Of a DNA stretch of 64,000 nucleotides, positions 21,394 through 62,618 are shown one piece after another. The notes below the pieces were generated by a model, which made no database searches, was not told the DNA's origin, and worked only from the letters and a program-made list of their open reading frames with translations. The translations under genes and the position numbers were made by a program. The number at the start of each line of letters is the position of its first letter. Positions within the stretch are counted from its first letter, which is position 1. The stretch comes from Candidatus Latescibacterota bacterium (GTDB taxonomy: Bacteria > Latescibacterota > UBA2968), in contig OZ242010.1 in assembly GCA_965204745.1 (NCBI GenBank), forward strand, positions 1,760,001 through 1,824,000, read 5' to 3'.

Positions 21394-21724
21394 ATGCGAA
21401 TAAAGCGTTGCATCCATTTATTGGGACCTACCCCCCTGGCCCCCCTTCCTGTGAGGAAGGGGGGAATGGCGAGAGGTTGTGCGAGGGGTTTGGGTTTCCA
21501 GAGCGTGATCTATTCGCTCAAAGCCATCAGAACAGCTAGGGAGACAAACCTTCAAAAAGCCATGCGCTCCCCCTTTCCTTGTAGGAAAGGGGGCCGGGGG
21601 GATAGGTCCTACGAGGAAGGGGAAGAACCTCTCTCGTTGCGGAGAGGAGCCGGATGACTCGTCCATGTCTTTGGGCGATTGGTCTCGGCTTGCTTCCTAC
21701 TCGCTTTCTACTCTTAATTCGCAT
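21394..21724 (+). mobile_element. Non-autonomous IS982-derived element with palindromic repeat A in place of the transposase
   Basis: Ends ATGCGAATAAAGCGT / ACTCTTAATTCGCAT match the IS982 at 24494-25477; TGGCA duplication. Confidence 0.85.
21423..21609. repeat. Palindromic repeat family A, copy 1 (others at 34205-34427 and 50807-50996)
   Basis: GGGACCTACCCCCC...GGGGGATAGGTCC ends with two internal CCCC(T)TTCC..GGAA(A)GGGG hairpins. Confidence 0.9.
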
Positions 21725-21968
21725 TGGCAATTGAAGCGTATCAAAGGCAGTCATCACATTTATGCTAGATCCGGAAATCCCGCTCGAATCTCAGTGCCCG
21801 TTCACAGCAATAAGACACTTAAGAAAGGCTTGCAAATACACTTTATGAAGATTGCTGGCATCGAGGAAAGTGAATTGTGAGGCTATCCCGAAATGAAGCG
21901 ACAACCGTCATCTTGCAATCTCGCCTTTCTTCCGCGTAATCCGCGTAATCCGCGATCAGGTTTTCCAC

Positions 21969-22730
21969 ATGCTTATCGACTCACACGCGCATTTGATGTT
22001 TTCGCAATTTAGCGGGGATTTGGACGAGGTGTTCGCTCGGGCACGCGCCGCGGGGGTGGGGCAGATCGTGAATGTGGGCACCAATTTGGAGACGAGCCGC
22101 GCTGCCGTCGCGCTTGCAAATGACCAGGTGTTTGCCACAGCGGGATTTCACCCGGCGGATTCGGCGAAAGCGGATGCGTCATCCCTCGAGAAATTGCCCG
22201 ATCTTTTGGCGCGTCAACAGGTCGTTGCAGTCGGGGAAACCGGGTTGGATTTCTATCGCGATTACGCGCCGCGCGATGTGCAGGAACGGGCGTTTCGGGC
22301 GCATATTCGGCTGGCGTGCGAAATGGGCCTGCCGCTGATCATCCACAGCCGCGCTGCCGAGACCCGCGTGTTGGACATCTTGGCAGAAGAAGGCGCGTCC
22401 CAAGTGGGCGGCGCAATGCACTGTTTTGGCGGGAACGCGGCAGAAGCCCGTCGCGCGGTTGATCTCGATTTTCATCTGGGCTTTGGCGGCATTGTCACGT
22501 TCAAAAACGCGCACGCATTGAAGGTCGCCTTGGGCGTGCCCGTCGATCGGTTGCTGTTGGAAACCGATTGTCCATTTCTGGCACCAGTGCCAAAACGCGG
22601 CAAGCGCAACGAGCCGGCATATGTGCGCTATGTCGCCGAGTGTTTGGCGCGTGCCGGACGCGGGGATTTTGACGCGGTCTGCCGGCAAACGACGCACAAT
22701 GCCCAGACCTTGTTTGGGTTGCCATCGTGA
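21969..22730 (+). CDS. tatD: TatD-family DNase
   Basis: LIDSHAH, GFHP, VGETGLD, IIHSR, HCF, LLETDCP. Confidence 0.93.
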   Translation: MLIDSHAHLMFSQFSGDLDEVFARARAAGVGQIVNVGTNLETSRAAVALANDQVFATAGFHPADSAKADASSLEKLPDLLARQQVVAVGETGLDFYRDYAPRDVQERAFRAHIRLACEMGLPLIIHSRAAETRVLDILAEEGASQVGGAMHCFGGNAAEARRAVDLDFHLGFGGIVTFKNAHALKVALGVPVDRLLLETDCPFLAPVPKRGKRNEPAYVRYVAECLARAGRGDFDAVCRQTTHNAQTLFGLPS

Positions 22731-23491
22731 AATCAAAAAAAAAATTGAGCCAGCATTTTCTCGTCAATGCCGCGTCTGCTACACAGATCGTGGAAGCCGC
22801 GCAAATTGGCAACGAGGACTCGGTCGTAGAAATCGGCCCTGGCCGCGGCGCATTGACAAACCTCTTAGTCGCCCAAGCGAACCGGGTCATCGCCATTGAA
22901 ATCGACGAAAAACTGTGCGACCTGCTCGCCGCGCGATTCGGGTCGCAACTACAACTCGTCCGCAAAGACGTGCGCCAAGTCAATTTGCCCGCGCTCGTGG
23001 AATCCAAAGCAATTCTGGTGGGCAACTTGCCCTATCACCTCACGGGCGCGCTCATCAGGCAGATTACGGATGCGCGCAGGGTTTGGAAACGCGCTGTGAT
23101 CACAGTACAACGCGAAGTCGCACAGCGCATGATCGCACAGCCGGGTAGCAAAACCTACGGCGTGTTGTCTATCGTCACGCAGGTGCGATGCGCGGCAACC
23201 CGGTTATTTGACCTGCCGCCCACGCATTTTTTTCCCGCGCCCAAGGTGCATTCGTCCGTGTTAATGCTGGATTTTCAAGCCCCTTCTGCTTATGATATTG
23301 CAAACGAAAGGCGTTTGTTCGGCATCGTGCGCGCCGCATTTCAGCAACGGCGAAAAATGGTGCGAAATGCACTCGCCCATGTGGTAGATGCCGAGACGCT
23401 GATGGCGGCAGAGGTCGATGGTCGCGCCCGTCCGGAAACCATCTCTATCGCCGGCTATGAACGGATTTGCCGCGCAATGGCAATGCGATAA
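22727..23491 (+). CDS. rsmA: 16S rRNA m6,2A dimethyltransferase
   Basis: KKKLSQHFL, EIGPGRGALT, GNLPY, QREVA, F.PAPKV.S, QRRK. Confidence 0.95.
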   Translation: MKSKKKLSQHFLVNAASATQIVEAAQIGNEDSVVEIGPGRGALTNLLVAQANRVIAIEIDEKLCDLLAARFGSQLQLVRKDVRQVNLPALVESKAILVGNLPYHLTGALIRQITDARRVWKRAVITVQREVAQRMIAQPGSKTYGVLSIVTQVRCAATRLFDLPPTHFFPAPKVHSSVLMLDFQAPSAYDIANERRLFGIVRAAFQQRRKMVRNALAHVVDAETLMAAEVDGRARPETISIAGYERICRAMAMR

Positions 23492-24493
23492 CTTTTAGAG
23501 AAAAGAGAAAACCCTTGTTGAATATTCGCCTCTACTTGTTCGCAAATGTGATGATGCTGGCCTTGACCGCATGCGGGGGTGAGAAGTACACCTCAGCTTC
23601 GTTCCCCAAGCCTATTCCGGCAACTGAAGGAGCCATTACAGTGACCATCGCCGAGTTCGCGTCTTTGCCCGATATCAGCGACGGTCGAGTAGCGCCGATG
23701 ATGTTGCTCGTCGATGAACCGGGCACGGGCCGCTTGTTTGTGAACGACCAGTCTGGCGTATTGTACAGTGTCAGTTACGACGGGCGCACTGTTGTGCCCT
23801 TTCTCGATCACACTGACGCGCTATGGGGAATCAAGGTACGAAGAAAAAACTCGCATCCACAAGACATACGCGAGTTACGCGGATTTCATAGTTTCGCTTT
23901 CCACCCGCAGTTCGCCGAGGCGAGCACACCGGGGTTCGGTAGGTTCTACACCTTTTTAGAATCGCGCAACGAAACCGATGATCTACTCCTGCTGGAGTGG
24001 ACAGCGGCGGATCCCTACGCCGCGTTCTACGATGGCGGCCCGCCGAGGGAACTCATGCGGAAGCCATGTAAGGATCATTGCTCCGGTATGCTCGGCTTCA
24101 ATCCAAGTGCAACCCCCGGGGATACCGACTTTGGGCTACTTTACATGTCGATAGGTGATGGATTAAACTCAGGTGAAGTTAAACGCAGCCTTGTCTCTCA
24201 AGATCTGAGCGAGATATTCGGCAAGATACTCCGCATTGACCCGCTTGGGTCAAACAGCACCAATGGGCAGTACGGCATTCCCGCGGACAACCCATTTGTC
24301 TCAACGCGCAATGCGCTCGCCGAAATCTACGCCTACGGCATGCGCCACCCGCAACGCTTTGGCTGGGATGTACGAAACGGCAATCTGTTCGTCGCAGACA
24401 TCGGTGAGTACCAGGTTGAGGAGATCAGCCTCGTCCCTGCTGGAGCCAACCTCGGCTGGCCTAATTGGGAGGGGAGTTTTATGCCTGTTGACG

Positions 24494-25477
24494 ATGCGAA
24501 TTAAGAGTTGAATCCATCGCGTACTTGTCTTTTCTTGAGGGCTCAGTCATTTCACCCTTAAAGGAAGGAGCACGCGATGGATTGGCAAGATAAACTCATT
24601 CACTTGTATGTCTATATTTGTCAGCAGTATGACCAAAAGCATCTGTGGTTTTATACACAACGCATGAGCAATAACGATACGCCGACCTTCACAGATGAAG
24701 AAGTGCTGACGATCTATTTGTTTGGGATCATGCAACAGCACACGCAGATCAAGGCGATTTATACCTATACCAAGGATCATCTTTCCGACTGGTTTCCCCA
24801 TCTGCCCACTTATGCAGGCTATATCCAGCGGTTGAACCGCTTGTGTGTGGTCTTCGCGCCATTGATTGAACAAATCCAAAAGGACAGTCCCGCAACCGAT
24901 CTCTCTGAACACACCTACTTGGTGGATTCCATGCCGATTGTCATGGCACAATCGGCACGCAGCGGTCAGGCGTGTGTGGCCGAAGAACAACTGGCCAACA
25001 AAGGCCGCTGCGCTTCCAAAAAGATGTGGTATTACGGCACCAAACTGCACATTGTCGCACAAGACCGTGAGAACGGCCTCCCGAAAGCAGAGTACATCGG
25101 CTTGACAGGTGCAGCAGAGCATGACCTGACCGCTTTGCGACAAGTCTTACCCGTTTTGCGTGATGGACACCTCTACGGCGATAAAATCTACGCCGATCAG
25201 CCCTTAAAAGACACGCTTAGCAAACAGCAGAACCTGATCTTCGAGACGCCGGTGAAGCGCAAGAAGGGACAAGAAAGCCTGACCGAAGCCGAAAAAGACT
25301 ATTCTCGGGCGGTTTCGAGCATACGACAGCCGATTGAGGCCTTGTTCAGTTGGATTGAACGAAAGACGAACATCTCGATGGCGTCTCGGGTACGATCCTA
25401 TGAGGGCTTACTCGTTCATGTCTTTGGGCGATTGACCGCGGCTTGCTTCTTACTCGCTTTCTACTCTTAATTCGCAT
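24494..25477 (+). mobile_element. IS982-family insertion sequence
   Basis: 15-bp perfect TIR ATGCGAATTAAGAGT/ACTCTTAATTCGCAT; TGACG duplication. Confidence 0.9.
24577..25470 (+). CDS. IS982-family DDE transposase
   Basis: FTDEEV, VDSMPI, YYGTKLH, HD, GDKIY, RQPIEALFS. Confidence 0.92.
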   Translation: MDWQDKLIHLYVYICQQYDQKHLWFYTQRMSNNDTPTFTDEEVLTIYLFGIMQQHTQIKAIYTYTKDHLSDWFPHLPTYAGYIQRLNRLCVVFAPLIEQIQKDSPATDLSEHTYLVDSMPIVMAQSARSGQACVAEEQLANKGRCASKKMWYYGTKLHIVAQDRENGLPKAEYIGLTGAAEHDLTALRQVLPVLRDGHLYGDKIYADQPLKDTLSKQQNLIFETPVKRKKGQESLTEAEKDYSRAVSSIRQPIEALFSWIERKTNISMASRVRSYEGLLVHVFGRLTAACFLLAFYS

Positions 25478-26075
25478 TGACGATTGGCGCGACGACTGGC
25501 GCATCATCTTCAGACTGGGCGAGAATGTGGTTCGGGCGATCCGGGAAGGGCACTTTCGGATCCAGCGTCCTTATGATCACCATGTCTTCAGTTACCGTAG
25601 CGACCCCAGCATCACCTATCCCGTTGTCGAGTTTGACCACTATGACCCATTATTAGGAGGAGACAGAGTCGCCATAACCGGTGTCGTCGTTTACCGTCAC
25701 GCTGCGATTCCCCAACTCGAGAACACGGTGCTCTTTGGCGACTTGGTCAGCGGCGAGGTGTTCTATTTTTCTGCGGACGACCTGCCCGAAGGCGGTCAAG
25801 CCGCCATTCGCCGGGTGCGGTTTGAGCATCGGGGCGAAACAAAGACCCTGTTGCAGATGATCCAAGAGAAGAATATCGCGCAGGGACGCGAGCCTGCTCA
25901 CCGTGCGGATATGCGATTCGGCACAGGGCCGAATGGGCAGATATTCTTGCTCAACAAGCAAGACGGGATCATTCGCCGCCTCATGCCGTAGTACCTGGAC
26001 AAAAAAATGGCAGTGATTGCCTACATTTTTGCCGCGTAATGGCGACGCAATAACTTTTAACGAAAGGGAGTTTCG

Positions 26076-26996
26076 ATGCCCATTCCGCAATCGGATAAAA
26101 TTTGGTTCAATGGGAATTTCGTGAATTGGGACGATGCCAAAATTCATGTGCTATCCCATGTGATACACTACGGTTCGAGCGTTTTCGAGGGGATCCGCTG
26201 TTATCAAACGGCGCGAGGGCCGGCGTGTTTCAGGCTTGGGGATCACGTCAACAGGCTTTGCGATTCCGCCAAAATCTACCGCTTGGACATTCCCTACACG
26301 CACGCCCAGCTCGAAGACGCCATTTTGGAGACGATCCGCGTGAACCGGTTGCAAGCGTGTTACGTCCGCCCCGTGGCGTTTCGGGGGTTTGGCGAACTGG
26401 CCGTCAACCCGATGCCCTGCCCTGTGGAAGTGGTGATCGCGGTGTGGGAATGGGGCAAGTACCTCGGCCCCGAGGCATTGGAAAAAGGCGTCTCAGCGCG
26501 CTTCGCGTCGTGGAATCGCTTTGCCCCCAACACCATGCCGTCACTCGCCAAAGTGGCTGCGAATTACATGAACGCCCAGTTAATCAAAATGGAAGCCATG
26601 GCCGATGGGTACGCCGAAGGCATTGCCTTAGACACGCAGGGCTATGTGAGCGAAGGCAGCGGCGAGAACATCTTCATGGTGAAAAACGGGCGGATTTACA
26701 CGCCTTCCACCGAGTCGTCCATCCTGCCCGGCATCACGCGCCACACAGTGATCACACTCGCCCGCGCCTTGGGCTACTCCGTGACGACCCGCCCCATTCC
26801 CCGCGAATCCCTGTACATCGCAGACGAGGTATTTTTCACGGGTAGCGCGGCGGAAATCACCCCGGTCACGGCCATCGACCACATTCCAGTCGGCGGCGGT
26901 GCCCGCGGCGAAATCACGCACCAACTCCAAGAAGCCTTTTTCGAGGTCGTAGAAGGCAGAACAGAAGACAAACACGCCTGGCTGACGTATGTGTAA
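26076..26996 (+). CDS. ilvE: Branched-chain amino acid aminotransferase
   Basis: HYGSSVFEGIR, AKVAANY, EGSGENIF, ILPGITR, ADEVFFTGSAAEI. Confidence 0.96.
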   Translation: MPIPQSDKIWFNGNFVNWDDAKIHVLSHVIHYGSSVFEGIRCYQTARGPACFRLGDHVNRLCDSAKIYRLDIPYTHAQLEDAILETIRVNRLQACYVRPVAFRGFGELAVNPMPCPVEVVIAVWEWGKYLGPEALEKGVSARFASWNRFAPNTMPSLAKVAANYMNAQLIKMEAMADGYAEGIALDTQGYVSEGSGENIFMVKNGRIYTPSTESSILPGITRHTVITLARALGYSVTTRPIPRESLYIADEVFFTGSAAEITPVTAIDHIPVGGGARGEITHQLQEAFFEVVEGRTEDKHAWLTYV

Positions 26997-27072
26997 CCTG
27001 AAAATCGGCGATCACCGGCGAACTTTACCGCGCAATGACAATGCGATAACTTTTAGCGAAAGGAGAAAACCC

Positions 27073-28560
27073 ATGTCGCATACTCGCCTCTACCTGTTCG
27101 CAAATGTGATGATGCTGGCTTTGACCGCATGCGGGAGTGAGAAGTACTCTCGATATCCGTTCCCTGAGCCTATTCCGGCAACCGAAGGGGCCATTACAGT
27201 GACCACCGCCGAGTTCGCATCCCTGCCCGATATTGACGGTCAGGCGGCGTTGATGATGTTGCTCGTCGATGAGCCGGGCACGGGCCGCTTGTTTGTGAAC
27301 GACCTGTCCGGTGTATTGTACAGCGTCAGTTACGACGGGCGCACTGTTGTGCCCTATCTCGATCACACTGACGCGCTATGGGGACTCGGAGTCAGAAAAC
27401 CTATATTGGAAGCAACTGCTTACCAACCAAGGAGACGAAGAGGATTTCAGAGTTTCGCTTTCCACCCGCAGTTCGCCGAGGTTGGCGCACCGAGGTTCGG
27501 TAAGTTCTACACTTTAGTCGAATTACACAACGAAACCAAGTATCTATCCCTGCTGGAGTGGACAGCGGAGGATCCCTACGCTGCGTTCTACGATGGCGGC
27601 CCGCCGAGGGAAGTCATGCGGAGCGAGCGATTGCCGGGTGATCGTTACTCCGGTATGCTCGGCTTCAATCCAAGTGCAACCCCCGAGGATCCCGACTTTG
27701 GGCTACTTTACTGGTCGATAGGCGGTGGATTAAACGAAGTCTGGTCTCAAGATCTGAGCAATATGTTCGGCAAGATACTCCGCATTGACCCGCTTGGCTC
27801 AAATAGCACCAACGGGCAGTACGGCATTCCCGCGGATAACCCATTTGTCTCAACGCGCAATGCGCTCGCCGAAATCTACGCCTACGGCATGCGCCACCCG
27901 CAACGCTTTGGCTGGGACGTACGAAACGGCAACCTGTTCGTCGCAGACATCGGTGGGGAGTTTGTCGAGGAAATCAGCCTTGTCACTGCTGGAGCCAACC
28001 TCGGCTGGCCTATATGGAGGGGGAGTTTTCTACGTGGTGACGATTGGCGCGACGACTGGCGCATCGTCGTCAGACTGGGCGAGAATGTGGTTCGGGCGAT
28101 CCGGGAAGGGCACTTCCGGATCCACCGTCCTTATGATTACCATGTCATCGATTTGGACAATCCCCGTAGCGACGCCAGCTTCACCTATCCCGTTGTCGAG
28201 TTTGACCACAGGGACCCGCTGTGGGAAACTCAAAGCACTGCCATAACCGGTGTCGTCGTTTACCGTCACGCTGCGATTCCCCAACTCGAGAACACGGTGC
28301 TCTTTGGCGAATTGGTCAGCGGCGAGGTGTTCTATTTTTTTGCGGACGATCTGCCCGAAGGCGGTCAAGCCGCCATTCGCCGGGTGCGGTTTGAGCATCG
28401 GGGCGAAACAAAGACCCTGTTGCAGATGATCCAAGAGAAGAATATCGCGCAGGGACGCGAGCCTACTGACCGTGCGGATCTGCGATTCGGCACAGGGCCG
28501 AATGGGCAGATATTCTTGCTCAACAAGCAAGACGGGATCATTCGCCGCCTCATGCCGTAG
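27073..28560 (+). CDS. PQQ/sorbosone-dehydrogenase-like beta-propeller lipoprotein, copy 2
   Basis: LTAC lipobox; AFHPQF, GKILRID, YGIPADNPF, EIYAYGMRHP, GANLGWP. Confidence 0.85.
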   Translation: MSHTRLYLFANVMMLALTACGSEKYSRYPFPEPIPATEGAITVTTAEFASLPDIDGQAALMMLLVDEPGTGRLFVNDLSGVLYSVSYDGRTVVPYLDHTDALWGLGVRKPILEATAYQPRRRRGFQSFAFHPQFAEVGAPRFGKFYTLVELHNETKYLSLLEWTAEDPYAAFYDGGPPREVMRSERLPGDRYSGMLGFNPSATPEDPDFGLLYWSIGGGLNEVWSQDLSNMFGKILRIDPLGSNSTNGQYGIPADNPFVSTRNALAEIYAYGMRHPQRFGWDVRNGNLFVADIGGEFVEEISLVTAGANLGWPIWRGSFLRGDDWRDDWRIVVRLGENVVRAIREGHFRIHRPYDYHVIDLDNPRSDASFTYPVVEFDHRDPLWETQSTAITGVVVYRHAAIPQLENTVLFGELVSGEVFYFFADDLPEGGQAAIRRVRFEHRGETKTLLQMIQEKNIAQGREPTDRADLRFGTGPNGQIFLLNKQDGIIRRLMP

Positions 28561-28688
28561 CACCTAAAAAAACAAACCGTTTAATACGACCAACTCTTGA
28601 AGGTGACTGGCGAAAAAATGGCAATGATTGCCTACATTTTTGCCGCGCAATGGCAATGCGATAACTTTTAGCAAAAGAAAGAAAACCC

Positions 28689-30260
28689 TTGTTGAATATT
28701 CGTCTCTACTTGTTAGCAAATATGATGATGGCGTGGTCGGCCTTGACCGTGTGCCTTTTGGAGCATCATATCTACATCCCCAAAGATCCGTCTGATGGTT
28801 ATAGGTTTGTCATCTCTCTTGTTAGATATTTATGCCCCCCCCCTCGCCAAGATCCGTTCCCTAAGGCTATTCCGGCAACCGAAGGGGCCATTACAGTGAA
28901 CATCGTCGAGTTCGCATCCCTGCCCGATATCAGCGACGGTCGGGTAGCGCCGATGATGTTGCTCGTCGATGAACCGGGCACGGGCCGCTTGTTTGTGAAC
29001 GACCAGTCCGGCGTATTGTACAGCATCAGTTACGACGGGCGCACTGTTGTGCCCTATCTCGATCACACTGACGCGCTATGGGGAATCGAGGTGCGAAGAA
29101 AAAACCTTTGGCCCAGAGACAAACGCGAGTTACGCGGGTTTCATAGTTTCGCCTTCCATCCGCAGTTCGCCGAGGCGGGCACACCGGGGTTCGGTAGGTT
29201 CTACACCTTTGTCGAATCGCGCAACGAAACCGATGATCTACTCCTGCTGGAGTGGACAGCGGCGGATCCCTACGCCGCGTTCTACGATGGCGGCCCGCCG
29301 AGGGAACTCATGCGGAAGCCATGTGTTAAGGATCATTGCTCTGGTATGCTCGGCTTCAATCCAAGTGCAACCCCCGGGGATACTGACTTTGGGCTACTTT
29401 ACATGTCGATAGGCGATGGATTAAACGCAGCCTGGTCTCAAGATCTGAGCAATCTATTTGGCAAGATACTCCGCATTGACCCGCTTGGGTCAAACAGCAC
29501 CAATGGGCAGTACGGCATTCCCGCGGACAACCCATTTGTCTCAGCGCGCAATGCGCTCGGCGAAATCTACGCCTACGGCATGCGCCACCCGCAACGCTTT
29601 GGCTGGGATGTACGAAACGGCAACCTGTTCGTCGCAGACATCGGTGAGTACCAGGTTGAGGAGATTAGCCTCGTCCCTGCTGGGGCCAACCTCGGCTGGC
29701 CTAATTGGGAGGGGAGTTTTCTGCTTTTTGACGACTGGCGCGACGACTGGCGCATCATCTTCAGACTGGTCAGAAATGTGGATTGGGCAATCCGGGGGGA
29801 ATGGCCCTGGGCCTTCGGAGATATCTCGCCTGAGGACCACCCTGTCTTGAGTTTGGACAATCTCCGTAGCGACGCCAGCATCACCTATCCCGTTGTCGAG
29901 TTTGACCACAAGGATCCGCTGTTGGGGAGAAGAAGAGTTGCTATAACCGGTGTCGTGGTTTACCGTCACGCTGCGATTCCCCAACTCGAGAACACGGTGC
30001 TCTTTGGCGACTTGGTCAGCGGCGAGGTGTTCTATTTTTCTGCGGACGACCTGCCCGAAGGTGGTCAAGCCGCCATTCGCCGGGTGCGGTTTGAGCATCG
30101 GGGCGAAACAAAGACCCTGTTGCAGATGATCCAAGAGATGAATATCGCGCAGGGACGCGAGCCTGCTCACCGTGCGGATATGCGATTCGGCACCGGGCCG
30201 AATGGGCAGATATTCTTGCTCAACAAGCAAGACGGGATCATTCGCCGCCTCATGCCGTAG
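28689..30260 (+). CDS. PQQ/sorbosone-dehydrogenase-like protein, copy 3 (altered N-terminus)
   Basis: Same motifs. Confidence 0.85.
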   Translation: MLNIRLYLLANMMMAWSALTVCLLEHHIYIPKDPSDGYRFVISLVRYLCPPPRQDPFPKAIPATEGAITVNIVEFASLPDISDGRVAPMMLLVDEPGTGRLFVNDQSGVLYSISYDGRTVVPYLDHTDALWGIEVRRKNLWPRDKRELRGFHSFAFHPQFAEAGTPGFGRFYTFVESRNETDDLLLLEWTAADPYAAFYDGGPPRELMRKPCVKDHCSGMLGFNPSATPGDTDFGLLYMSIGDGLNAAWSQDLSNLFGKILRIDPLGSNSTNGQYGIPADNPFVSARNALGEIYAYGMRHPQRFGWDVRNGNLFVADIGEYQVEEISLVPAGANLGWPNWEGSFLLFDDWRDDWRIIFRLVRNVDWAIRGEWPWAFGDISPEDHPVLSLDNLRSDASITYPVVEFDHKDPLLGRRRVAITGVVVYRHAAIPQLENTVLFGDLVSGEVFYFSADDLPEGGQAAIRRVRFEHRGETKTLLQMIQEMNIAQGREPAHRADMRFGTGPNGQIFLLNKQDGIIRRLMP

Positions 30261-30384
30261 TACCTGAAAAAAAATCGCTCAATGCGGCCTCCTCCTGAAG
30301 GCGAACAAAAAAAATGGCAGTGATTGCCTACATTTTTGCCGCACAATAGCAATGCGATAACTTTTAGCGAAAGGAAGAAAACCC

Positions 30385-31839
30385 TTGTTGAATATTCGCC
30401 TCTACCTGTTCGCAAATGTGATGATGCTGGCTTTGACCGCATGCGGTGGTGGGAGTGGGCGAGAAGATCTGTTCCCTGAGCCTATTCCAGCAACCGAAGG
30501 GGCCATTACAGTGAACATCGCCGAGTTCGCATCCCTGCCCGATATTGACGGTCAGGCGGCGTTGATGATGTTGCTCGTCGATGAACCGGGTACGGGTCGC
30601 TTGTTTGTGAACGACCAGTCTGGCGTATTGTACAGCGTCAGTTATGACGGGCGCACTGTTGTGCCCTATCTCGATCTTGACGCCTTGGGTAGCGCTGTTC
30701 CGACCATATTGCATAGTTTCGCTTTCCACCCGCAGTTCGCCGAGGCTGGCACTCCGGGGTTCGGCAAGTTCTACACCTTGGTCATATTCGAGACCCCCGT
30801 CGAAAAGCCCAACCGAACCATAATCTTGCATCAGTTGTCCATTCTGGAGTGGACAGCGGAGGATCCCTACGCCGCGTTCTACGATGGCGGCCCGCCGAGG
30901 GAAGTCATGCGGAAACCACCGGATATGTGGTCCGGTATGCTCGGTTTCAATCCAAGTGCAACCCCCGGGGATACCGACTTTGGGCTACTTTACATGTCGA
31001 TAGGCGTTGTATACAACAAAGACCGGGCACAAGACCTGAGCAATATACTCGGCAAGATACTCCGCATTGACCCCCTTGGGTCAAACAGCACCAACGGGCA
31101 GTACGGCATTCCCGCGGACAACCCATTTGTCTCAACGCGCAATGCGCTCGCCGAAATCTACGCCTACGGCATGCGCAACCCGCAACGCTTTGGCTGGGAT
31201 GTACGAAACGGCAACCTGTTCGTCGCAGACATCGGTAAACATCATGTTGAGGAGATCAACCTCGTCTCTGCTGGGGCCAACCTCGGCTGGCCTAATTGGG
31301 AGGGGAGTTTTCCTTGGGTTGACGACTGGCGCGACGACTGGCGCATCGTCGTCGGACTGGGCGAGAATGTGGTTCGGGCAATCCGGGAAGGGCACTTTCG
31401 GATCCAGCGTCCTTATGATCACCATGTTTTCAGTTTAGACAACCCCCGTAGCGACTCCAGCATCACCTATCCCGTTGTCGAGTTTGACCACCATGACCCA
31501 TTATTAGGAGAGAGAGTCGCCATAACCGGTGTCGTCGTTTACCGTCACGCTGCGATTCCCCAACTCGAGAACACGGTGCTCTTTGGCGACTTGGTCAGCG
31601 GCGAGGTGTTCTATTTTTCTGCGGACGACCTGCCCGAAGGCGGTCAAGCAGGCATTCGCCGGGTGCGGTTTGAGCATCGGGGCGAAACAAAGACCCTGTT
31701 GCAGATGATTCAAGAGAAGAATATCGCGCAGGGACGCGAGCCTGCTCACCGTGCGGATATGCGATTCGGCACCGGGCCGAATGGGCAGATATTCTTGCTC
31801 AACAAGCGAGATGGGATCATTCGCCGCCTCATGCCGTAG
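30385..31839 (+). CDS. PQQ/sorbosone-dehydrogenase-like lipoprotein, copy 4
   Basis: Same motifs; GMRNP. Confidence 0.85.
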   Translation: MLNIRLYLFANVMMLALTACGGGSGREDLFPEPIPATEGAITVNIAEFASLPDIDGQAALMMLLVDEPGTGRLFVNDQSGVLYSVSYDGRTVVPYLDLDALGSAVPTILHSFAFHPQFAEAGTPGFGKFYTLVIFETPVEKPNRTIILHQLSILEWTAEDPYAAFYDGGPPREVMRKPPDMWSGMLGFNPSATPGDTDFGLLYMSIGVVYNKDRAQDLSNILGKILRIDPLGSNSTNGQYGIPADNPFVSTRNALAEIYAYGMRNPQRFGWDVRNGNLFVADIGKHHVEEINLVSAGANLGWPNWEGSFPWVDDWRDDWRIVVGLGENVVRAIREGHFRIQRPYDHHVFSLDNPRSDSSITYPVVEFDHHDPLLGERVAITGVVVYRHAAIPQLENTVLFGDLVSGEVFYFSADDLPEGGQAGIRRVRFEHRGETKTLLQMIQEKNIAQGREPAHRADMRFGTGPNGQIFLLNKRDGIIRRLMP

Positions 31840-31865
31840 CAGGTTCAACGACAAATAGAAAGCGA

Positions 31866-33280: not shown

Positions 33281-33281
33281 G

Positions 33282-34079: not shown

Positions 34080-34090
34080 GATGCGGTAAA

Positions 34091-34177
34091 GGCATAAAAG
34101 CCACAAAAGGCATGAAAGCCACAAAAGGCACAAAAGGCACAAAAGGGGTACAACTGGCGATAGCCAGTTCAAAGGCA
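34091..34177. repeat. 9-mer tandem array plus hairpin module C (inverted copy at 49345-49377)
   Basis: (CACAAAAGG)n followed by GGGGTACAACTGGCGATAGCCAGTTCAAAGGCA. Confidence 0.85.
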
Positions 34178-34204: not shown

Positions 34205-34452
34205 GGGACCTACCCCCCTAACCCCCGTTACTCGCTACGCTTCGTTGTAGGCTACGCCTGTGCCTGCGAGGAAGGGGGGAACTGTGAGCGGTTTTGCGAG
34301 GGGATTGATGAGGGGTTTTAATCGCTTTATGCCCTCGGTCAACGCCATCAGAGCAACTAGAGCGAGAAGCCATCAAAGGAGCTTTACTCCCCTTTCCTTG
34401 TAGGAAAGGGGCCGGGGGATAGGTCCCCTCGCGCAACGCCATCAGAGCAACC
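34205..34452. repeat. Palindromic repeat family A, copy 2, with an insert of about 35 nt in the first hairpin
   Basis: Near-identical to the reverse complement of the 50807-50996 copy and its flank. Confidence 0.9.
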
Positions 34453-34549
34453 ATCATCCCTGCGATGAGGCAGGATACGGGCAACTTAAAAGCAAATTGG
34501 TATAAGCAGTCAGGGATCAACTCCTGTCTAACATCCATCAAAAAGTAAA

Positions 34550-50570: not shown

Positions 50571-50682
50571 GGGAATCTCCTGTGGGAATGGACGGAACGG
50601 GGGACAACTGCAATAGCAGTTCATTGAAGCGTGTAATGGTTGGGGGATTGGGCGGGGACTGACCACTGACTACTGACTACTA

Positions 50683-51063
50683 GGTTGTGTTGACATTTCA
50701 TTTTTTTGACGTTACGCCCAGAGTAGCAACTGTGTTGCTTCTTGCTCATTTAAGGCGTTTCCTTTGATGGCTTCTCGGTCTGATTGCTCTGATGGCGTTG
50801 ACCGAGGGGACCTATCCCCCGGCCCCTTTCCTACGAGGAAAGGGGAGTAAAGTGCCTTTGATGGCTTCTCGCTCTGGTTGCTCTGATGGCGTTGCGCGAG
50901 GGTATAAAGCGATTAAATATCCCTCATCAATCCCCTCGCAAAACCGCTCACAGTTCCCCCCTTCCTCGCAGGAAGGGGGGTTAGGGGGGTAGGTCCGATA
51001 GAACTTGATTTTTTCGATAAACCGCTCAAGCCAGTTGCTTTGCTCGTAAATGTCAACAGAACC
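50683..51063 (-). mobile_element. IS5-derived MITE carrying repeat family A
   Basis: TIRs GGTTGTGTTGACATTT / AAATGTCAACAGAACC; TA/TG flanks; both arms shared with 62127-62618. Confidence 0.8.
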
Positions 51064-51081
51064 TGACCACTAACCACTCAT

Positions 51082-52119: not shown

Positions 52120-53430
52120 TTAGTCCGCTCGCCCGTGCGGTGAAATTCCGAACTGGCGCAATGTGCTTTCCAATGTTGGGCGGTGGAGGCGAATGCGGTC
52201 GTCATTCAGCAAATAGGAGAAAACATAGCCGAGGCCGAGCATCAAAATGCCGATCAAAAAGCAATAGATGACCGCGCGGTCCGGGTATTCGTCTTTGAGA
52301 TAGCCCACGTAGAGCGGGCCGGTGATGCCCGCGGCGGCCCAGGCAGTCAAAATCGCGCCGTAGATCGTGGACATTCTCTCTGTGCCAAACACGTCGAGCA
52401 CAAAAGAGGGCATGGTGGCAAAGCCCCCGCCAAAACACAAGAGGACATAACAAACGAGCGCGGAAAAGATCCATGGATTGCGCTCCGTCATCAGGATGCC
52501 AAAGACGATCATCTGGCTGGCGAGCAAAATTCTGAAAATGCCGACCCGGCTGATGCGATCCGATAACAACCCCCAAAACAGCCGGCCCACGCCATTGCAC
52601 AGCGAACTGACCGCGATCAGCGTGGCGCCGTATTCGGCCAAGGTCGCCGGCTCTATGGACGGGTCCGCAAGCCCCCAAACCTCTTGCAGGAGTTCGGACT
52701 GAAAGCTGATGATGGAGATGCCCGCGGCAATGTTGAAGAAAAACACGATCCACATGAGGACGAACTCGGAAGATCGCAAATAGGGCGCGACCGAGTCGTC
52801 GGTTGCGCCCTGTGGCGTTCTCGCAACGGGAGAAACCGCGGTTGGGGGATCGCGCAACAACGCGCTGGCCGGCAACAAGATGCAGGCAAATACGACGCCG
52901 AGCCACAAGAAGACGAGCATCAGATCTTCCTCTGTTCGCAACACGAGAAAGGGCGCCAAGATCTTGCTCAAGAGAAACGCGCCCACGCCAAAGCCCATCA
53001 CCACGATTCCCGTCACCAGTCCCTTGCGGTCCGGAAACCACTTGGCCGCGGTTGCGACCGGCGTGACATAGCCAAGCCCAATGCCCGCGCCACCGACGAC
53101 GCCATACCCGAGATAGAAAAGCGCGAGGATGTCCAAGTGCAAGGCGAGGCTGGCGATGAGGTACCCGCCCGAAAACAGGGTGCTGCCTGCCACCGCCAAT
53201 TTGCGCGGGCCGAGCCGCGGGAGCATCGCGCCTGCCCACGTTGCGGATATGCCCAGCGAGAAGATCGCAATGCTAAACGCCCATGCGGTTTCCGTGAACG
53301 ACCAACCGAGTTGCCTGACCAAAAGCGTTTGAAAAAAACTCCACGCGTACACCGTGCCGAAGCAGATTTGCAACACCGTACAAGATAGGGCTATAATCGC
53401 ACGCGGAATCTGGATGGCTGATTTTGCCAT
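52120..53430 (-). CDS. OFA-family MFS transporter
   Basis: GTVYAWS, KWFPDRKGL.TG, GRLFWG.LSDRI. Confidence 0.9.
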   Translation of the reverse strand: MAKSAIQIPRAIIALSCTVLQICFGTVYAWSFFQTLLVRQLGWSFTETAWAFSIAIFSLGISATWAGAMLPRLGPRKLAVAGSTLFSGGYLIASLALHLDILALFYLGYGVVGGAGIGLGYVTPVATAAKWFPDRKGLVTGIVVMGFGVGAFLLSKILAPFLVLRTEEDLMLVFLWLGVVFACILLPASALLRDPPTAVSPVARTPQGATDDSVAPYLRSSEFVLMWIVFFFNIAAGISIISFQSELLQEVWGLADPSIEPATLAEYGATLIAVSSLCNGVGRLFWGLLSDRISRVGIFRILLASQMIVFGILMTERNPWIFSALVCYVLLCFGGGFATMPSFVLDVFGTERMSTIYGAILTAWAAAGITGPLYVGYLKDEYPDRAVIYCFLIGILMLGLGYVFSYLLNDDRIRLHRPTLESTLRQFGISPHGRAD

Positions 53431-53545
53431 ACTATTCTAAACTCCAATGTCCTGTTGCGATATGCTACCCGCGAGTGATGGCTTTGACGTTACACACATT
53501 CAGAGAAGCCATAGCAACCCTACCATCCCAAAAGCCCATCAGTTA

Positions 53546-53767
53546 AAGCCATCACGCACAGCGCGCAAGGCCGTCTCGCAACCAATCATCCATCTTGCAA
53601 CCCACTTTGCAGGCCAACGCATGTCGTGCTATTACAAAAGCGTTTTGCGCTGTGCAAGCCTCTCGGCGTTTGAGAGCGGCATTTTTTGCCTACTTTTTTT
53701 TGCTGTTGAAAAAAAGTAGGTCGCCGAAGGCATCGAAGGCAACAAACGATGCTTTAGGGCCAAACGC
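53546..53767. repeat. Structured repeat family B, copy 1 (copy 2 at 62329-62549)
   Basis: About 220 bp, highly similar; hairpin CCTACTTTTTTT-TGCTGTTG-AAAAAAAGTAGG. Confidence 0.92.
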
Positions 53768-53819
53768 TTGAGACAAGCAATGCATGACCCGTTTGGTATA
53801 ACATCCGGGGGAGGGGGTA

Positions 53820-54542: not shown

Positions 54543-54543
54543 G

Positions 54544-56099: not shown

Positions 56100-56273
56100 C
56101 CACCCACCGCCCAACCGCCGCTTCGTCCTTCCCCTCCACTCAACCACCCATGCGTGCCTAAAAATACAAGAGGTGGTGATTTAGTGATTGACAAGTGGGG
56201 CTATTCAGATATTTTAGGCACGCATTGAGTTGACAGATGCGATTGCAACCACTTCCATACAAAGAGGGAAACC

Positions 56274-58313: not shown

Positions 58314-59764
58314 CGCGTCACCCATCTACGCACACGGGGTTCAATCGGGAAATCCAAAGCTCCGATCTGAAATGGACAACGGTTGATATTCGAGAAGTCG
58401 CTGAAAATGACTACCGCTTAGAGGCGAGCGTTTACAGTAGCGCGGGCAGACAGGCAAGAGAGGATTTAGAACAGTGCAGGTGGGATATTGTGCATTTGGG
58501 CGATAAATTTATCGAGAATGCCTTTTATCTCGGGAGATTCAAAAGAATTTATGTTGAAGCAAAGGATGGTGTTCCCTTCATTCTGCCCTCACAAATCACA
58601 GAAGTCTATCCAAAAGCCAGTAAGTTTATTTCTCCTACGACAAATATTGATATTGAAAGTACGCGGGGCAAAAGAGGCCAGGTGTTGCTCACTCGTTCTG
58701 GGACTATCGGCATCGTTTCTTATGTATCCAAAACGCTCGAAAATCAAGCCTTATCGGATGATGTGATCCGCATAGAAGCGAAAGCGTATTCTGGATATAT
58801 TTATGCCTTTCTGAAATCAAAAACTGGCTTTGCGATCATAAATACCAACCCCTACGGGGCAGTGATTAAACACATCGAACCCAAACATCTAAATCACATT
58901 CCGATACCCAATCCGCCGCCCATCCTCAAACAAGCCATTCACGACTTGATCGAGGAATCCTTCAAATTGAGGGATGAATCCAATGACCTGATGGATGAGG
59001 CGCAGGCATTGTTAATAGACGCTTTGCAACTTCCCGACATCGAAGAATTACAAGCCGAGCAAATCGGTCAAAAAGCTGACCTACTCAACTATTCCGTTCC
59101 ACTAAATGCCTTGGACAATCGTCTGGACGCTTCTTATTATGTTCCCATTGTTCAGGCAATTGAACGGCATTTAGAGAAAACGGCAAAAAAGGTCGTCAAG
59201 GTTGGTGACAGTCGAATAAGCCAAGCGATTATCTTGCCCGGCCGATTCAAAAGGGTCTATGTTGAAGAAGACAATGGCGTTGTGTTCTTTGGTGGAAAAC
59301 AGATTTACGAGCTAGACCCAAGCAACAAAAAGTATCTGTCATTGGTGCATCATGGGGATAGAATTAGAAATCAATTAGCCTTGCATGAGAACATGACTAT
59401 GATTACATCTAGTGGAACAATCGGCAAAGTAACAATTGCTCCTAAACACTGGGAAGGCTGGACTGCGAATCAACATATCATTCGAGTCGTTCCTACAAAC
59501 GATGAAATTGCTGGCTACCTCTACGCTTGGCTTTCGACCGATTACGCCTATCACCTAATAACTCGATACACCTATGGGGCTGTGGTTAACGAGATCGATG
59601 ATAAGCAAGTTGCGGACATAGCGATTCCCCTGTTGCATAATGAAACCACTCAGCAGGCGATCAATGACAAAGTTTTGAACGCAAACCAAAAGCGGGCGGA
59701 AGCCTACGAGTTGGAGCAAGAGGCATTGACCATGCTCGATAAGCAGGTTATTTATGCACAGTGA
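58307..59764 (+). CDS. Restriction-modification specificity (S) subunit
   Basis: Two repeated TRDs (RLEAS.Y/RLDASYY, GRFKR.YVE, SGTIG, YGAV, IPIP). Confidence 0.88.
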   Translation: MVARHPSTHTGFNREIQSSDLKWTTVDIREVAENDYRLEASVYSSAGRQAREDLEQCRWDIVHLGDKFIENAFYLGRFKRIYVEAKDGVPFILPSQITEVYPKASKFISPTTNIDIESTRGKRGQVLLTRSGTIGIVSYVSKTLENQALSDDVIRIEAKAYSGYIYAFLKSKTGFAIINTNPYGAVIKHIEPKHLNHIPIPNPPPILKQAIHDLIEESFKLRDESNDLMDEAQALLIDALQLPDIEELQAEQIGQKADLLNYSVPLNALDNRLDASYYVPIVQAIERHLEKTAKKVVKVGDSRISQAIILPGRFKRVYVEEDNGVVFFGGKQIYELDPSNKKYLSLVHHGDRIRNQLALHENMTMITSSGTIGKVTIAPKHWEGWTANQHIIRVVPTNDEIAGYLYAWLSTDYAYHLITRYTYGAVVNEIDDKQVADIAIPLLHNETTQQAINDKVLNANQKRAEAYELEQEALTMLDKQVIYAQ

Positions 59765-60116
59765 ACCCGTTCGCGTCGCGCTCAAAATTCAAAAAACGCC
59801 CGGCGTCTGCGGTGGTCGCGCATGCGTGGGCAATACGCGCATCCCGGTGTGGACGCTGATCGGCTTTTTTCGCCAAGGCGCGACCGATGCAGAGGTGATG
59901 CGGGCGTATCCCGCACTCACCGCTGATCATCTGGATCTCGCACGGAAATACTACGAGACGCACCGCACGGAAATCAACCGCGATATTCGAGAACAGGATT
60001 CGCCACCTTTAACCGATGACGCGCTTGTGCAAGTTGCTGACGCGCTTTTCGTCAAACTCGACAAAATGGAGGCGCGGGATGCCGAGTCCAAATCGCGGGG
60101 AAGTCTGATTGATTGA
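59754..60116 (+). CDS. DUF433 antitoxin-like protein with C-terminal extension
   Basis: TPGVCGGRACV.NTRIPV, YPAL. Confidence 0.8.
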   Translation: MHSEPVRVALKIQKTPGVCGGRACVGNTRIPVWTLIGFFRQGATDAEVMRAYPALTADHLDLARKYYETHRTEINRDIREQDSPPLTDDALVQVADALFVKLDKMEARDAESKSRGSLID

Positions 60117-60142
60117 CCTTGGCGTGGTAGCATAAGATCAGG
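60079..60142 (+). pseudogene. MazF/PemK toxin remnant
   Basis: MPSPNRGEV*LIDLGVVA then frameshifted KIR; truncated. Confidence 0.6.
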
Positions 60143-60150
60143 CAAAAAAT

Positions 60151-60186
60151 AAAAGCGTACGTGTGGATATCGACACGTACGCTTTT
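60151..60186. terminator. Bidirectional terminator
   Basis: AAAAGCGTACGTGT-N8-ACACGTACGCTTTT between convergent genes. Confidence 0.8.
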
Positions 60187-60290
60187 GTCTTTTGGAGATT
60201 GGGGGTCGCTTGGTTCAGGCTTCATCGGTCAATTCTAACGCTGTTAATTGATCAATTCGGAAAAAGTAAAGCAGGGGAGATGTGTCGATG

Positions 60291-60551
60291 CTACAAGTTT
60301 CTGGCATTGGAGAAATCCCTGACCAGATCTTCTGCGGACAGGTTGATGGCGGATACGCGGTAGGACTTTAGGGCATCCAAAAACAGAACGCGCTCCATGC
60401 CGGCAAAACGCGCTGCCTGACCTGACGAGAGGTGGCCGAGTTCAAACAACTTGACGGCGATGAGCATGCGTCCTGTTTCAGCGAAGTGTTCGGGCGTTTC
60501 GCTGAGGGTTTGCAGAATATCATCTGGGCATTCAAAGGTAATTTGAGGCAT
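60291..60551 (-). CDS. UPF0175-family antitoxin-like protein
   Basis: AVKLFELGHLSSGQAARFAGMERVLFL. Confidence 0.85.
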   Translation of the reverse strand: MPQITFECPDDILQTLSETPEHFAETGRMLIAVKLFELGHLSSGQAARFAGMERVLFLDALKSYRVSAINLSAEDLVRDFSNARNL

Positions 60552-60615
60552 GGCGCGCTCCGTGAAATTTTGGTTGTCCAGCCACCGCAACATGCTGCAA
60601 TTTGTCAACCGCGTA

Positions 60616-62016
60616 TCAAAACATCTCGCGTTGCGTGCCGTCGTACGCATCGTGTTGTCGGCGGCGGCGGGAGATGTGGTCTTCGACCGTGTTGCGGGAG
60701 ATGACTTCGTAGAGAATGGCGTGTTTGCCTTCGCGGCGGCGCAAAATCCGGCCCAGGCGTTGGACGTGTTCGCGGATGGTGGCCGTGCCAGAGAGCACTA
60801 CGGCGACATTGGCCTCGGGCACGTTGACCCCTTCGTTGAGCACGCGAGACGTGACGAGCGCGAGGATGGCGCCGCGGTTAAAGGCTTTGAGGATTTCCCG
60901 GCGTTCTTTTGTGCGCGTCTGGTGCGTGATGGCCGGAATGAGAAATTGTTCCGAGATCGCATAGACGGTCTCGTTGTCATTGGTGAAGATGAGCATGCGG
61001 TCTCGCGGGTGTTTTTTGAGCAGGTCTTCTAACACGCGCAATTTGGCGGCAGTGCCCAAGGCGATCTTGCGATACCGGCGATACGCGAGCATGGCGCGGC
61101 GCCCGTCGCTGGAGCGCGCCGAGAGGCGGACGAAATTTTGCCAGCCCGACGCACTGCCCAAGCGCAGGTTTTTGGATTCGAGAAACGCGCTGAATTGCGA
61201 CCGTGCGGTCTCGTATTCGGCGCGTTCTTCGGCCACCATATCGACTTCGATGCGCTGCGTGTTGTAGTCCGAGAGGTAATCGCCGGACAGGTCGCGGATG
61301 CCCTTTTCGTAAACCGTTGGCCCGATGAGATCGCGCAACATCAGGTGCCGACCATCGGGCCGTTCAAGCGTGGCCGTGAGGCCCAAGCGATAGGGCGCGA
61401 TGCAAAGCTCTGCGCCGTGGGAATAGGATTCCCCGGGCAGGTGGTGAACCTCGTCAAAAACGAGAAAGCCAAACCGGTTGCCGTAGCGATCCATGTTCAT
61501 GTACGCGCTGTCGTACGTGGTCACAGTGAGGTCTTCGAGTTCGTGATAGCCCCCGCCCAAGATACCGACCGCGCAGGAGAAGGCGTCTTTGAGCAGGTCG
61601 TACCACTGGTTCATCAGGTCGATAGTGGGCGCGACAACCATGGTGCTACGATTGACCTCGGCAATGCCCATCAGCGCGAGCAGGGATTTGCCCGAGCCCG
61701 TGGGCAACACCACGACGCCGCGCCGCTCGTTTGACCGCCACGCGTCGAGGGCTTCGGTCTGATGGGGATGGGGCGCGTGTTCGCGCTTGAGGGTGAGCTT
61801 GAGGCGGTTGTAGCGCGGGACGACGTTTTTGATGCCCACCTCTTGTGCGCGGAGTGCTTCGACAATTTGGCGATACCGATGCGCCTGCGCGCGCCAACGC
61901 CCCACGCGGCTATCCCACACAAACGGGGACGGCGGTTCGTACTCTGGCGGCGCGTCCAAGAGAACGAGCGTGCCATCGTCAAATGCGAGGCGAATGTCAG
62001 AAGATAGATCGGACAA
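60616..62016 (-). CDS. SF2 helicase, XPB/Rad25-like
   Basis: LPTGSGKS, DEVHH, GLTAT, VLNEGVNVP, QRLGRILR; start approximate. Confidence 0.9.
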   Translation of the reverse strand: MSDLSSDIRLAFDDGTLVLLDAPPEYEPPSPFVWDSRVGRWRAQAHRYRQIVEALRAQEVGIKNVVPRYNRLKLTLKREHAPHPHQTEALDAWRSNERRGVVVLPTGSGKSLLALMGIAEVNRSTMVVAPTIDLMNQWYDLLKDAFSCAVGILGGGYHELEDLTVTTYDSAYMNMDRYGNRFGFLVFDEVHHLPGESYSHGAELCIAPYRLGLTATLERPDGRHLMLRDLIGPTVYEKGIRDLSGDYLSDYNTQRIEVDMVAEERAEYETARSQFSAFLESKNLRLGSASGWQNFVRLSARSSDGRRAMLAYRRYRKIALGTAAKLRVLEDLLKKHPRDRMLIFTNDNETVYAISEQFLIPAITHQTRTKERREILKAFNRGAILALVTSRVLNEGVNVPEANVAVVLSGTATIREHVQRLGRILRRREGKHAILYEVISRNTVEDHISRRRRQHDAYDGTQREMF

Positions 62017-62126
62017 GGTAGGTGTAGTGGAAAGTGGAGAGTGGAGATGCCATCCCCGAAAGAATCGATCTGGGGTTGTATCGCATAACTTGCACTGGTT
62101 GGACACTTCTTGCACTTGGGTTGTTA

Positions 62127-62618
62127 GGTTGTGTTGACATTCACGAGCCATGCAACTGGCTGAGCGGTTTATCGAGAAAATCAAGTTCTATCGCAGAATA
62201 TGCTCTCGGTTTGAGAAACTCGGACAGTCGCTCCTTCAGCTTTCTCGCTTTTGTTGCATCGCATTCACTGCCGTTCCGCAGTTCAAAGAAGGCATCACAA
62301 CAAGTGCCCTCGCAAAACCCCTCCGATCAAGCCATCACGCACAGCGCGCAAGGCCGTCTCGCAACCAACGTCCATCTTGCAACCCACTTTGCAGGCTGGC
62401 ACATGTCGTGCGATTACAAAAGCGCGTTGCGCTGTGCAAGCCCCTCGGCGTTTGAGAGCGGCATTTTTTGCCTACTTTTTTTTGCTGTTGAAAAAAAGTA
62501 GGTCGCCGAAGGCATCGGAGGCAACCAACGAGGCTATAGGACCAAACGCCTTAAATGAGTAAGCAACACATTTGCTAATCTGTGCGTAACGTCAAAAAAA
62601 TAAAATGTCAACACGACC
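62127..62618 (+). mobile_element. IS5-derived MITE carrying a transposase 3' remnant and repeat family B
   Basis: TA-flanked TIRs GGTTGTGTTGACATT / AATGTCAACACGACC; remnant ERFIEKIKFYRRICSRFEKL. Confidence 0.85.

Follow-up and report, generated by a model that had tools for sequence, protein, structure and literature searches.

Probable mosaic miniature elements assembled from insertion-sequence ends and a pool of internal repeats in a Latescibacterota genome

The DNA considered here is a stretch of 64,000 nucleotides (hereafter the window; G000:C1:1760001-1824000) from a closed genome of the Latescibacterota (G000), which has a size of 5.48 Mb and a G+C content of 56.5%; a TatD-like protein is 88-90% identical to proteins of Candidatus Latescibacterota metagenome-assembled genomes. 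Our subject is a set of three short elements in this window, E1 (331 bp), E2 (381 bp) and E3 (492 bp), all of them non-coding and members of multi-copy families, in which the ends of an insertion sequence (IS), the shell, enclose a cargo referred to as repeat A or repeat B. The genome is rich in short repeats, and BLAST searches with E1, E2 and E3 gave 453, 660 and 274 matches, respectively, with E-values for repeats A and B down to 1e-60 to 1e-170, which is far beyond chance. A preliminary description had presented positions 21394-62618 as one candidate system of hollowed-out IS elements that kept both ends and their target duplications and lost most or all of the transposase. The three elements do possess IS ends and have lost the transposase, but the duplication is imperfect in E2, which is flanked by TA on one side and TG on the other; moreover, they are independent insertions and do not constitute one locus (Table 1).

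Table 1. Positions of the elements and their modules in the window
Feature	Position	Strand	Remark
E1, left target duplication TGGCA	21389..21393	.	right copy at 21725-21729
E1, left arm, IS982[1-24]	21394..21417	+	92% identity
E1, repeat A, subfamily A1	21418..21609	+	192-nt palindromic module, ~40-nt terminal hairpins (GGACCTACCCCCC...)
E1, 42-nt module	21610..21651	+	half hairpin and diverged IS982-like 3' region
E1, right arm with inverted repeat, ~70 nt of IS982 end	21652..21724	+	IS982[917-984], 93%
Full-length IS982-family element, 984 bp	24494..25477	+	flanks TGACG; transposase gene 24577-25470
Repeat A, subfamily A2	34206..34452	+	nested ~36-nt mini-insert in left hairpin; C motif 34427-34452
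Right arm and inverted-repeat tip (..AGCAAATTGGTAT) of an IS630-type MITE (miniature inverted-repeat transposable element), fused to the A2 copy at 34206	34453..34503	+	consensus comparison
E2, IS5-type right end: inverted repeat and A-rich tract	50683..50707	-	E2 inverted relative to E3
E2, retained tail of repeat B between shell end and A cargo	50708..50759	-	matches E3 412-468
E2, C motif and repeat A, subfamily A2	50760..50996	-	75% identity to A of E1
E2, left arm of IS5 type (positions 1-67), made up of inverted repeat and transposase C-terminal remnant	50997..51063	-	
IS630-type B-MITE in decay, with a degenerate inverted repeat on the left, the B core, and a right arm that bears an internal deletion and ends in ..TTTGGTAT	53430..53799	+	
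E3, IS5-type left arm: 15-nt inverted repeat and C-terminal remnant ..ERFIEKIKFYRRICSRFEKL..	62127..62267	+	corresponds to the empty shells in G000 and G018
E3, repeat B, long form ~327 nt, conserved stems	62268..62594	+	13-bp A/T hairpin
E3, IS5-type right end, 24 nt	62595..62618	+	TA on either flank of E3

The elements and their insertion-sequence ends

E1 had been described as an IS982 shell that contains repeat A, and this is indeed its composition. IS982-family elements are about 1 kb long, carry a single open reading frame (ORF) and produce a short target duplication. The copy at 24494-25477, which serves as our reference, has one ORF of 297 amino acids and a 5-bp duplication; its transposase scores 147.8 bits against NF033520 (the NCBIfam model for IS982, cut-off 130 bits) and matches PF01609 and PF13612, the latter at 1.8e-10. 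The ends of E1 (ATGCGAAT...ATTCGCAT), with TGGCA on either flank, are 92-93% identical to those of this resident element, and the last 68 nt correspond to IS982[917-984]; no transposase coding sequence remains. The 42-nt module of E1 is also found in IS982-type MITEs that lack A, and right ends like that of E1 are present 91 times in the genome.

Genome-wide pairing of end motifs yielded 41 IS982-ended elements, namely 13 full-length copies, four plain deletion derivatives without cargo (237, 606, 659 and 669 bp), 19 E1-type copies (329-398 bp), four other forms filled with a hairpin or with A (246, 273, 277 and 478 bp) and one spurious pair. Some pairs of full-length copies are 100% identical. 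A perfect 5-bp duplication borders 11 of the 13 full-length copies and eight of the 19 E1-type copies; among the latter, the duplication is one base off in another eight and worse in three. The median pairwise identity is 97.6% within the E1 family (10 copies of the 329-332-bp set) versus 97.2% for the full-length IS982 copies. The 984-bp element is an active parent of E1 and the probable transposase source for the E1-type MITEs.

Contigs of the Logan collection, from four runs of four studies, were mapped on positions 20500-26000 of the window only. One metagenomic contig of another study (X5) joins position 21388 directly to 21725, the shorter of its two sides measuring 136 nt. It skips 336 nt, the length of E1 (331) plus one 5-bp duplication, and hence natural populations have either gained E1 by insertion of the whole composite or lost it precisely as one piece. 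The neighbouring IS982 copy is absent from contigs of X3 and X5, where 989 nt are skipped; its site is also empty in the relative L018, and in the closest relative TGACA occurs just once at this position. No precise empty site of E1 was found in relatives, from which the whole segment with the hicA-like gene and E1 is missing. This segment of approximately 1 kb, in which a frame of 107 amino acids precedes E1 (21090-21413) and a small HicA-like frame directly follows it (21730-21850), is wholly missing in the relative L025 and partly in L019.

E2 and E3 have one common IS5-type shell, as had been proposed; it lies in opposite orientations in the two, and the inverted repeat GGTTSTGTTGACA is found in both. 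On its left, the shell has 15 nt of inverted repeat, to which the terminal ~125 nt of a transposase gene of the IS5 family are fused, and on its right an end of 24 nt. The remnant of the gene (about 40 C-terminal codons) reads inward; taken alone it has no Pfam match, and in a pairwise comparison its segment ERFIEKIKFYRRICSRFEKL is identical at 16 of 25 positions to a resident 819-bp IS (E = 2e-8). This IS5-family element is present in eight to nine near-identical copies with two overlapping frames and TA flanks, and has NF033580 scores of 111.8 and 156.6 bits (cut-off 110 bits). Its inverted repeat agrees with that of the shell at 16 of 16 positions, but its arm is only 78-80% identical, so that the 819-bp IS is a relative of the shell and not its parent.

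G000 contains 65 paired IS5 shells of 169-778 bp, of which 45 carry A, 19 carry B and one is empty; TA is found on either side of 52 of them. The empty shell has a length of 169 bp in G000 and of 164 bp in the genome G018. E3 is composed of shell positions 1-141, about 327 nt of B, and shell positions 469-492, and has lost no shell sequence relative to the empty shells. The A-bearing shells retain the last ~30-57 nt of B beside their right end, which implies that they descend from B-bearing shells. Within IS5 shells, A has one orientation and one right junction in every copy, and in E2 the junction of arm and A falls at a common TATCG (arm positions 63-67, which equal the left flank of A). In the genome G016, the intergenic regions orthologous to the E2 and E3 loci are shorter and lack the elements, with spacers too diverged for a precise alignment; near the E3 site, G018 has a different B-bearing element.

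Repeats A and B and their distribution over shells

Repeat A (positions 25-216 of E1) is a palindrome of about 190 nt with hairpins of approximately 40 nt at its ends, and 150 A units are present in G000. Folded as single-stranded DNA, the copy of E1 attains -51.3 kcal/mol, and a comparison with 100 mononucleotide-shuffled sequences gives z = -5.9. The earlier statement that E1 and E2 carry the same repeat A holds for the terminal hairpins, which are common to both, but not for the interiors, which largely differ (75% identity); the two copies represent two subfamilies, A1 and A2. In further species of the genus, the 45-nt hairpin unit of A stands by itself in intergenic DNA, and it was matched in 24 of the 31 genomes searched, including 12 of 12 from a sister family. 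Spacings of hairpin pairs cluster at 160-230 nt, and no autonomous element with A-type ends was found, there being no recurrent hairpin-pair spacing above 600 nt genome-wide. The left arm of the IS5 shell adjoins 61 of the 150 A units and IS982 arms adjoin 28, while in three units an IS982 left arm is paired with either a B tail or an IS5 right arm. Repeat A further occurs in at least 12 unique contexts, and no target duplication was seen around these unique-context copies. The additional copy in the window (34206-34452) had been thought to lie free of any shell; it is fused to the right arm of an IS630-type MITE with an inverted repeat ending at 34503.

Two variations on repeat A deserve mention. 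A mini-insert of approximately 36 nt with the core CGCTTCGTTGTAGGCTACGCCTGTGC lies at the loop side of A hairpins (e.g., at 34227-34263, and in the region of 21444 in variant copies); G000 has 116 copies of it, almost all of them placed in this way within a hairpin, and it resembles a nested mini-module or an alternative form of the hairpin. In addition, IS5 shells at G000 1835412-1836189 and 2622226-2622847 hold tandem arrays of A sub-units, with up to four copies of ~154 nt or repeated 92-nt units, so that tandem duplication within a shell is a further way in which the palindromes expand.

Repeat B (approximately positions 142-468 of E3) is represented by 87 cores in G000 and was present in each of the 18 genomes of the genus that were searched. 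B is also found in a MITE of about 450 bp with the ends TACCAAATTGA..TCAAATTGGTA and a 3-bp duplication; a duplication of this length borders seven of nine such B-MITEs and an IS630-family element of 1148 bp (G000 3296975-3298122; NF033545). The IS630 element and the B-MITE have only 26-30 nt of inverted repeat in common. A MITE of this type, in a decayed state, occupies approximately 53430-53799, and the second B of the window (53546), likewise reported to be devoid of a shell, is part of it.

Within each family, the conservation of the B core per 20-nt window is 0.93-1.00, versus 0.64-0.88 for the arms, and the core is the more conserved part across families as well. When 32 copies, taken from 19 genomes, are aligned, the alignment contains 72 invariant columns and an invariant long-range stem of 9 bp, and the hairpin of B shows compensatory pairs (CG 18/UA 13; AU 26/CG 4; UA 24/GC 6). 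One B copy is syntenic between the genomes G006 and G008. In the window, no match to Rfam attained the gathering score of the family concerned, and a search with E3 returned nothing relevant at E <= 1. Thirty B-core copies (e.g., G000 915204-915500), E3 not among them, have an insert of approximately 29 nt (GAACTGCTGGGGCAGTTGTACCCCGCTCG) just ahead of the A/T hairpin; the related motif GGGGTACAACTGGCGATAGCCAGTTCAAAGG occurs 261 times, often next to arrays of the heptamer CACAAAAGG (window 34146-34177).

The finding at the centre of the preliminary description, that one cargo sits in two shells and one shell holds two cargos, stands: A occurs in IS982 and IS5 shells, and IS5 shells contain A or B. 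Of the B cores, which number 87, 22 lie between two IS5 ends and nine between two IS630 ends; in 29 a single end can be recognised and in 20 no end at all, and the remaining seven have mismatched ends (five IS630-left/IS5-right, two IS5-left/IS630-right). In other genomes, the shell of B differs as well. G016 has B in IS630-type shells, and G018, the closest relative of G000, has B in a fourth type of shell, with ends AATACTCTGTAAAT.., which is absent from G000.

The microhomology for which the preliminary description proposed to inspect the junctions is present at some of them as motifs of 5-13 nt, but others show an overlap of 0-1 nt. One such motif is GAGCGGTTT (9 nt), at which positions 36-44 of the IS5 arm equal the interior of A, and another is GCCCTCGCAAAAC (13 nt), which marks an A-B junction and is contained in both A and B. 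Left junctions of A lie at positions 7, 30, 44, 59-67, 84 and 110 of the IS5 arm and at positions 22/24, 35, 36 and 40 of the IS982 arm. The IS5 junctions are anchored at the left end of A and their right side is constant, a pattern that fits one founding event followed by deletions. A composite family of another kind was noticed by eye in about 14 copies (G000 244166, 275386, 423685 and others): a 62-nt end of the 819-bp IS5 is joined directly to a truncated IS982 right arm, with A-related modules ahead of that arm.

Further repeats and genes surround these elements. Tandem arrays of 7-nt units (CTGACAA, CTGACCA and CTGACTA types) lie at most 30 nt from an end in 21 of the 41 IS982-ended elements versus 16 of the 65 IS5 shells; in the window they are located at 21725-21740, 25478-25500, 50655-50682 and 51064-51080, and the IS630 element (L017) also lies in one. 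Long arrays of the heptamers AGGCGAG/AGGTAAG (~30 units) are found at 2346-2569 and 17631-17728. The region 5100-14830 is an array of paralogous genes, made up of six tandem units of about 1345 bp (82-97% identical) with ORFs of ~420-500 amino acids, and the region 23600-31710 holds four repeats of ~1.6-1.7 kb (64-97% identical) with ORFs of ~480-520 amino acids; the IS982 copy at 24494-25477 is situated inside the latter cluster. The octamer GCGATCGC occurs five times genome-wide, compared with about 84 expected from the genome length.

Assembly and spread of the composites

We consider it probable that E1, E2 and E3 are mosaic MITEs, made of IS ends and pooled modules through ordinary transposition and recombination, for which no new enzyme is needed. 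Of its IS, each mosaic MITE retains no more than the terminal inverted repeat with a short subterminal arm, and transposases would be supplied in trans by the related resident IS982 (984 bp), IS5 (819 bp, same 16-nt inverted repeat) and IS630 (1148 bp) elements. The interiors are probably drawn from a small pool, comprising the palindrome A (built of the 45-nt hairpin found across the order), the structured core B, the motif C and mini-inserts of about 30 nt. A composite would be cut and pasted whole, and anything between the ends would be copied along, so that the cargo hitchhikes. This last idea had already been put forward in the preliminary description, and it is supported by the multi-copy composite families with target duplications and by the empty-site allele of E1. 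Cargo probably passes from shell to shell by recombination or by template switching during break repair, in common modules and in the 5-13-nt motifs, which would give rise to elements with mismatched ends; the arms would then be trimmed by microhomology deletions beside the palindromes. We infer such a recombination or repair route for the founding captures, and likewise the role of the 819-bp IS5 and of the single split IS630 copy as transposase sources for their shells. Since composites amplify as units, copies of A and B do not represent independent events, and the founding events probably number about three to four.

Several observations weigh against this interpretation. No founding capture was caught in the act, and the route of entry is deduced from the junctions; microhomology characterizes some junction classes only, those at positions 30, 84 and 7 of the IS5 arm having an overlap of 0-1 nt. 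Mobility was shown for E1 only, and the families of E2 and E3 are older than that of E1, with ~92% identity. A direct full-length parent of the E2/E3 shell was not found in G000, G018, G016, G008, G006 and G014, in which the search yielded only empty shells and a relative of the 819-bp IS (82% identical). The IS630 partner is present as a single copy, the gene of which is split into two frames. Finally, pure hitchhiking does not predict the conservation of the B core and its compensatory changes, and either gene conversion or selection is needed in addition.

Gene conversion among the many copies could account for the conservation of B, and so could selection. It is conceivable, but in our view unlikely, that the cargo is the driving entity: the B core, perhaps along with a hairpin (H), would be a selected structured element that was repeatedly acquired by unrelated transposon ends, and it could act as a non-coding RNA or as a sequence that boosts transposition. 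Its presence throughout the genus genomes searched, the occurrence of the same core in four shell types, its greater conservation relative to the arms of each family, the invariant columns and stem, the compensatory pairs and the syntenic copy in G006 and G008 all speak for such a role. Yet no Rfam family matches, the same degree of conservation would result from gene conversion among ~87 copies or from descent from master copies, and the compensatory changes are clustered in one A/T hairpin that is possibly constrained as DNA. B has been seen with IS630-type, IS5-type and fourth-type ends across three sister species, and we regard it as a tentative proposition, with the odds clearly against it, that the B core, and possibly the 45-nt hairpin of A, is a long-lived replicator under selection that persists across the genus and changes its transposon ends. 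If this were true, the IS ends would be interchangeable vehicles and the cargo the persisting passenger.

Nested transposition, in which A and B are themselves mobile, prefer IS remnants as targets and later lose their own ends by deletion, seems to us improbable; in this case the common cargo would be a matter of target preference and not of recombination. E3 does look as if B had inserted cleanly into a shell that was empty, B has an IS630-type MITE form of its own with a 3-bp duplication, A resides in a variety of unique contexts, and one IS5-shell element has A beside position 38 of B, while another has B[1-37] followed by A. However, both IS630 arms (~60 and ~65 nt) are missing from B in all 19 paired IS5-shell copies, neither a target duplication around A nor an autonomous element with A-type ends was found, and the single orientation and right junction of A in IS5 shells fit one founding event with subsequent deletions.

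The other option of the preliminary description, in which an enzyme dedicated to this task, be it of the host or selfish (e.g., RAYT/HUH or GIY-YIG), puts palindromes into IS genes with deletion and thereby disarms the ISs, is very improbable: by copy number 89 of the 150 A units adjoin an IS5 or IS982 arm, and their left junctions fall at several positions of both arms, but the excess of copies is accounted for by amplification of few composites, the junctions anchored at the left end of A and partly microhomologous are those that secondary deletions would give, plain deletion derivatives exist, none of the 13 full-length IS982 copies and none of nine copies of the 819-bp IS5 carries A or B, PF01797 found no RAYT/Y1 transposase in G000 (97.65% complete) while control genomes gave matches, and a search for enzyme genes between hairpin pairs (five of nine wide spacings, nine ORFs) disclosed no candidate repeat enzyme among the nine proteins, six of which belong to housekeeping families and three to no family.

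The reading of E1, E2 and E3 as mosaic MITEs reveals neither a new enzyme nor a defence against ISs. It means that the interiors of bacterial MITEs, here in a closed genome from an uncultured phylum, can form a shared and exchangeable pool and need not be left over from the parent IS, and that several IS families, unrelated to one another, can lend their ends to one core. The classification of MITEs is affected, as groupings by core and by ends disagree in this genome. The elements are also relevant to repeat-driven recombination in symbiont-like genomes, and to the question whether some MITE cores are under selection.

Comparison with known systems

In the light of published work, the premise that ordinary MITEs arise solely by internal deletion was too narrow (PMC4133298, PMC3814204, PMC2872659): the TIMEs of Pseudomonas include hybrid elements and MITE cores unrelated to the parent (PMC4133298), mosquito MITEs are reported to capture filler via interrupted gap repair, template switching and microhomology joining (Fattash et al. 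2013, PMC3814204), and the CMITEs of corals, which belong to one superfamily, have cores that are more conserved than their ends (PMC2872659).

The elements of G000 resemble the IS-derived MITEs of bacteria, as described in PMC4133298 and PMC3189936, in being small, non-coding, multi-copy and intergenic, with ends of resident ISs and duplications of the parental length. They differ from them in that their interiors are not just deletion remnants, and in that a single genome has the same modules on three IS families, to which a sister species adds a fourth type of end. With the Pseudomonas TIMEs they have in common a core that is unrelated to any transposon, and hybrids that swap part of the core for another module (PMC4133298). 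TIME-COMPs, in contrast, contain genes and have a complete TIME at either end (PMC4133298), whereas single ends and short non-coding modules are found here; the composites of G000 have one inverted repeat per end and none internally, and are therefore not of the composite transposon or TIME-COMP type.

The REPIN-RAYT system offers a parallel to repeat A, in which two palindromic units, inverted relative to each other, fold into a long hairpin, and of which the 45-nt unit is widespread and intergenic; it is set apart from that system (PMC3189936) by the lack of a RAYT in G000, by a length of ~190 nt and by the many copies inside IS-ended shells. The birth of MITEs through abortive gap repair (PMC3814204, which cites Rubin and Levy 1997) likewise involves internal deletions with microhomology at the breakpoints and accepts unrelated filler as an outcome. 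In that case the elements are eukaryotic Tc1/mariner transposons, whereas in G000 the route is deduced from the junctions and the filler is repeatedly drawn from the same abundant modules.

The Acropora CMITEs (PMC2872659) are similar in that, between families, an internal region is more conserved than the terminal repeats and in the formation of tandem arrays. Unlike them, all of which have a piggyBac-type terminal motif, the elements studied here are bacterial, have IS982, IS5, IS630 and fourth-type ends, and include forms with mismatched ends. A literature search that covered few subscription journals brought up no bacterial MITE families that stem from different IS families and have one common core. 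MITEs with a conserved core are known from corals; a bacterial case that spans several IS families is new.

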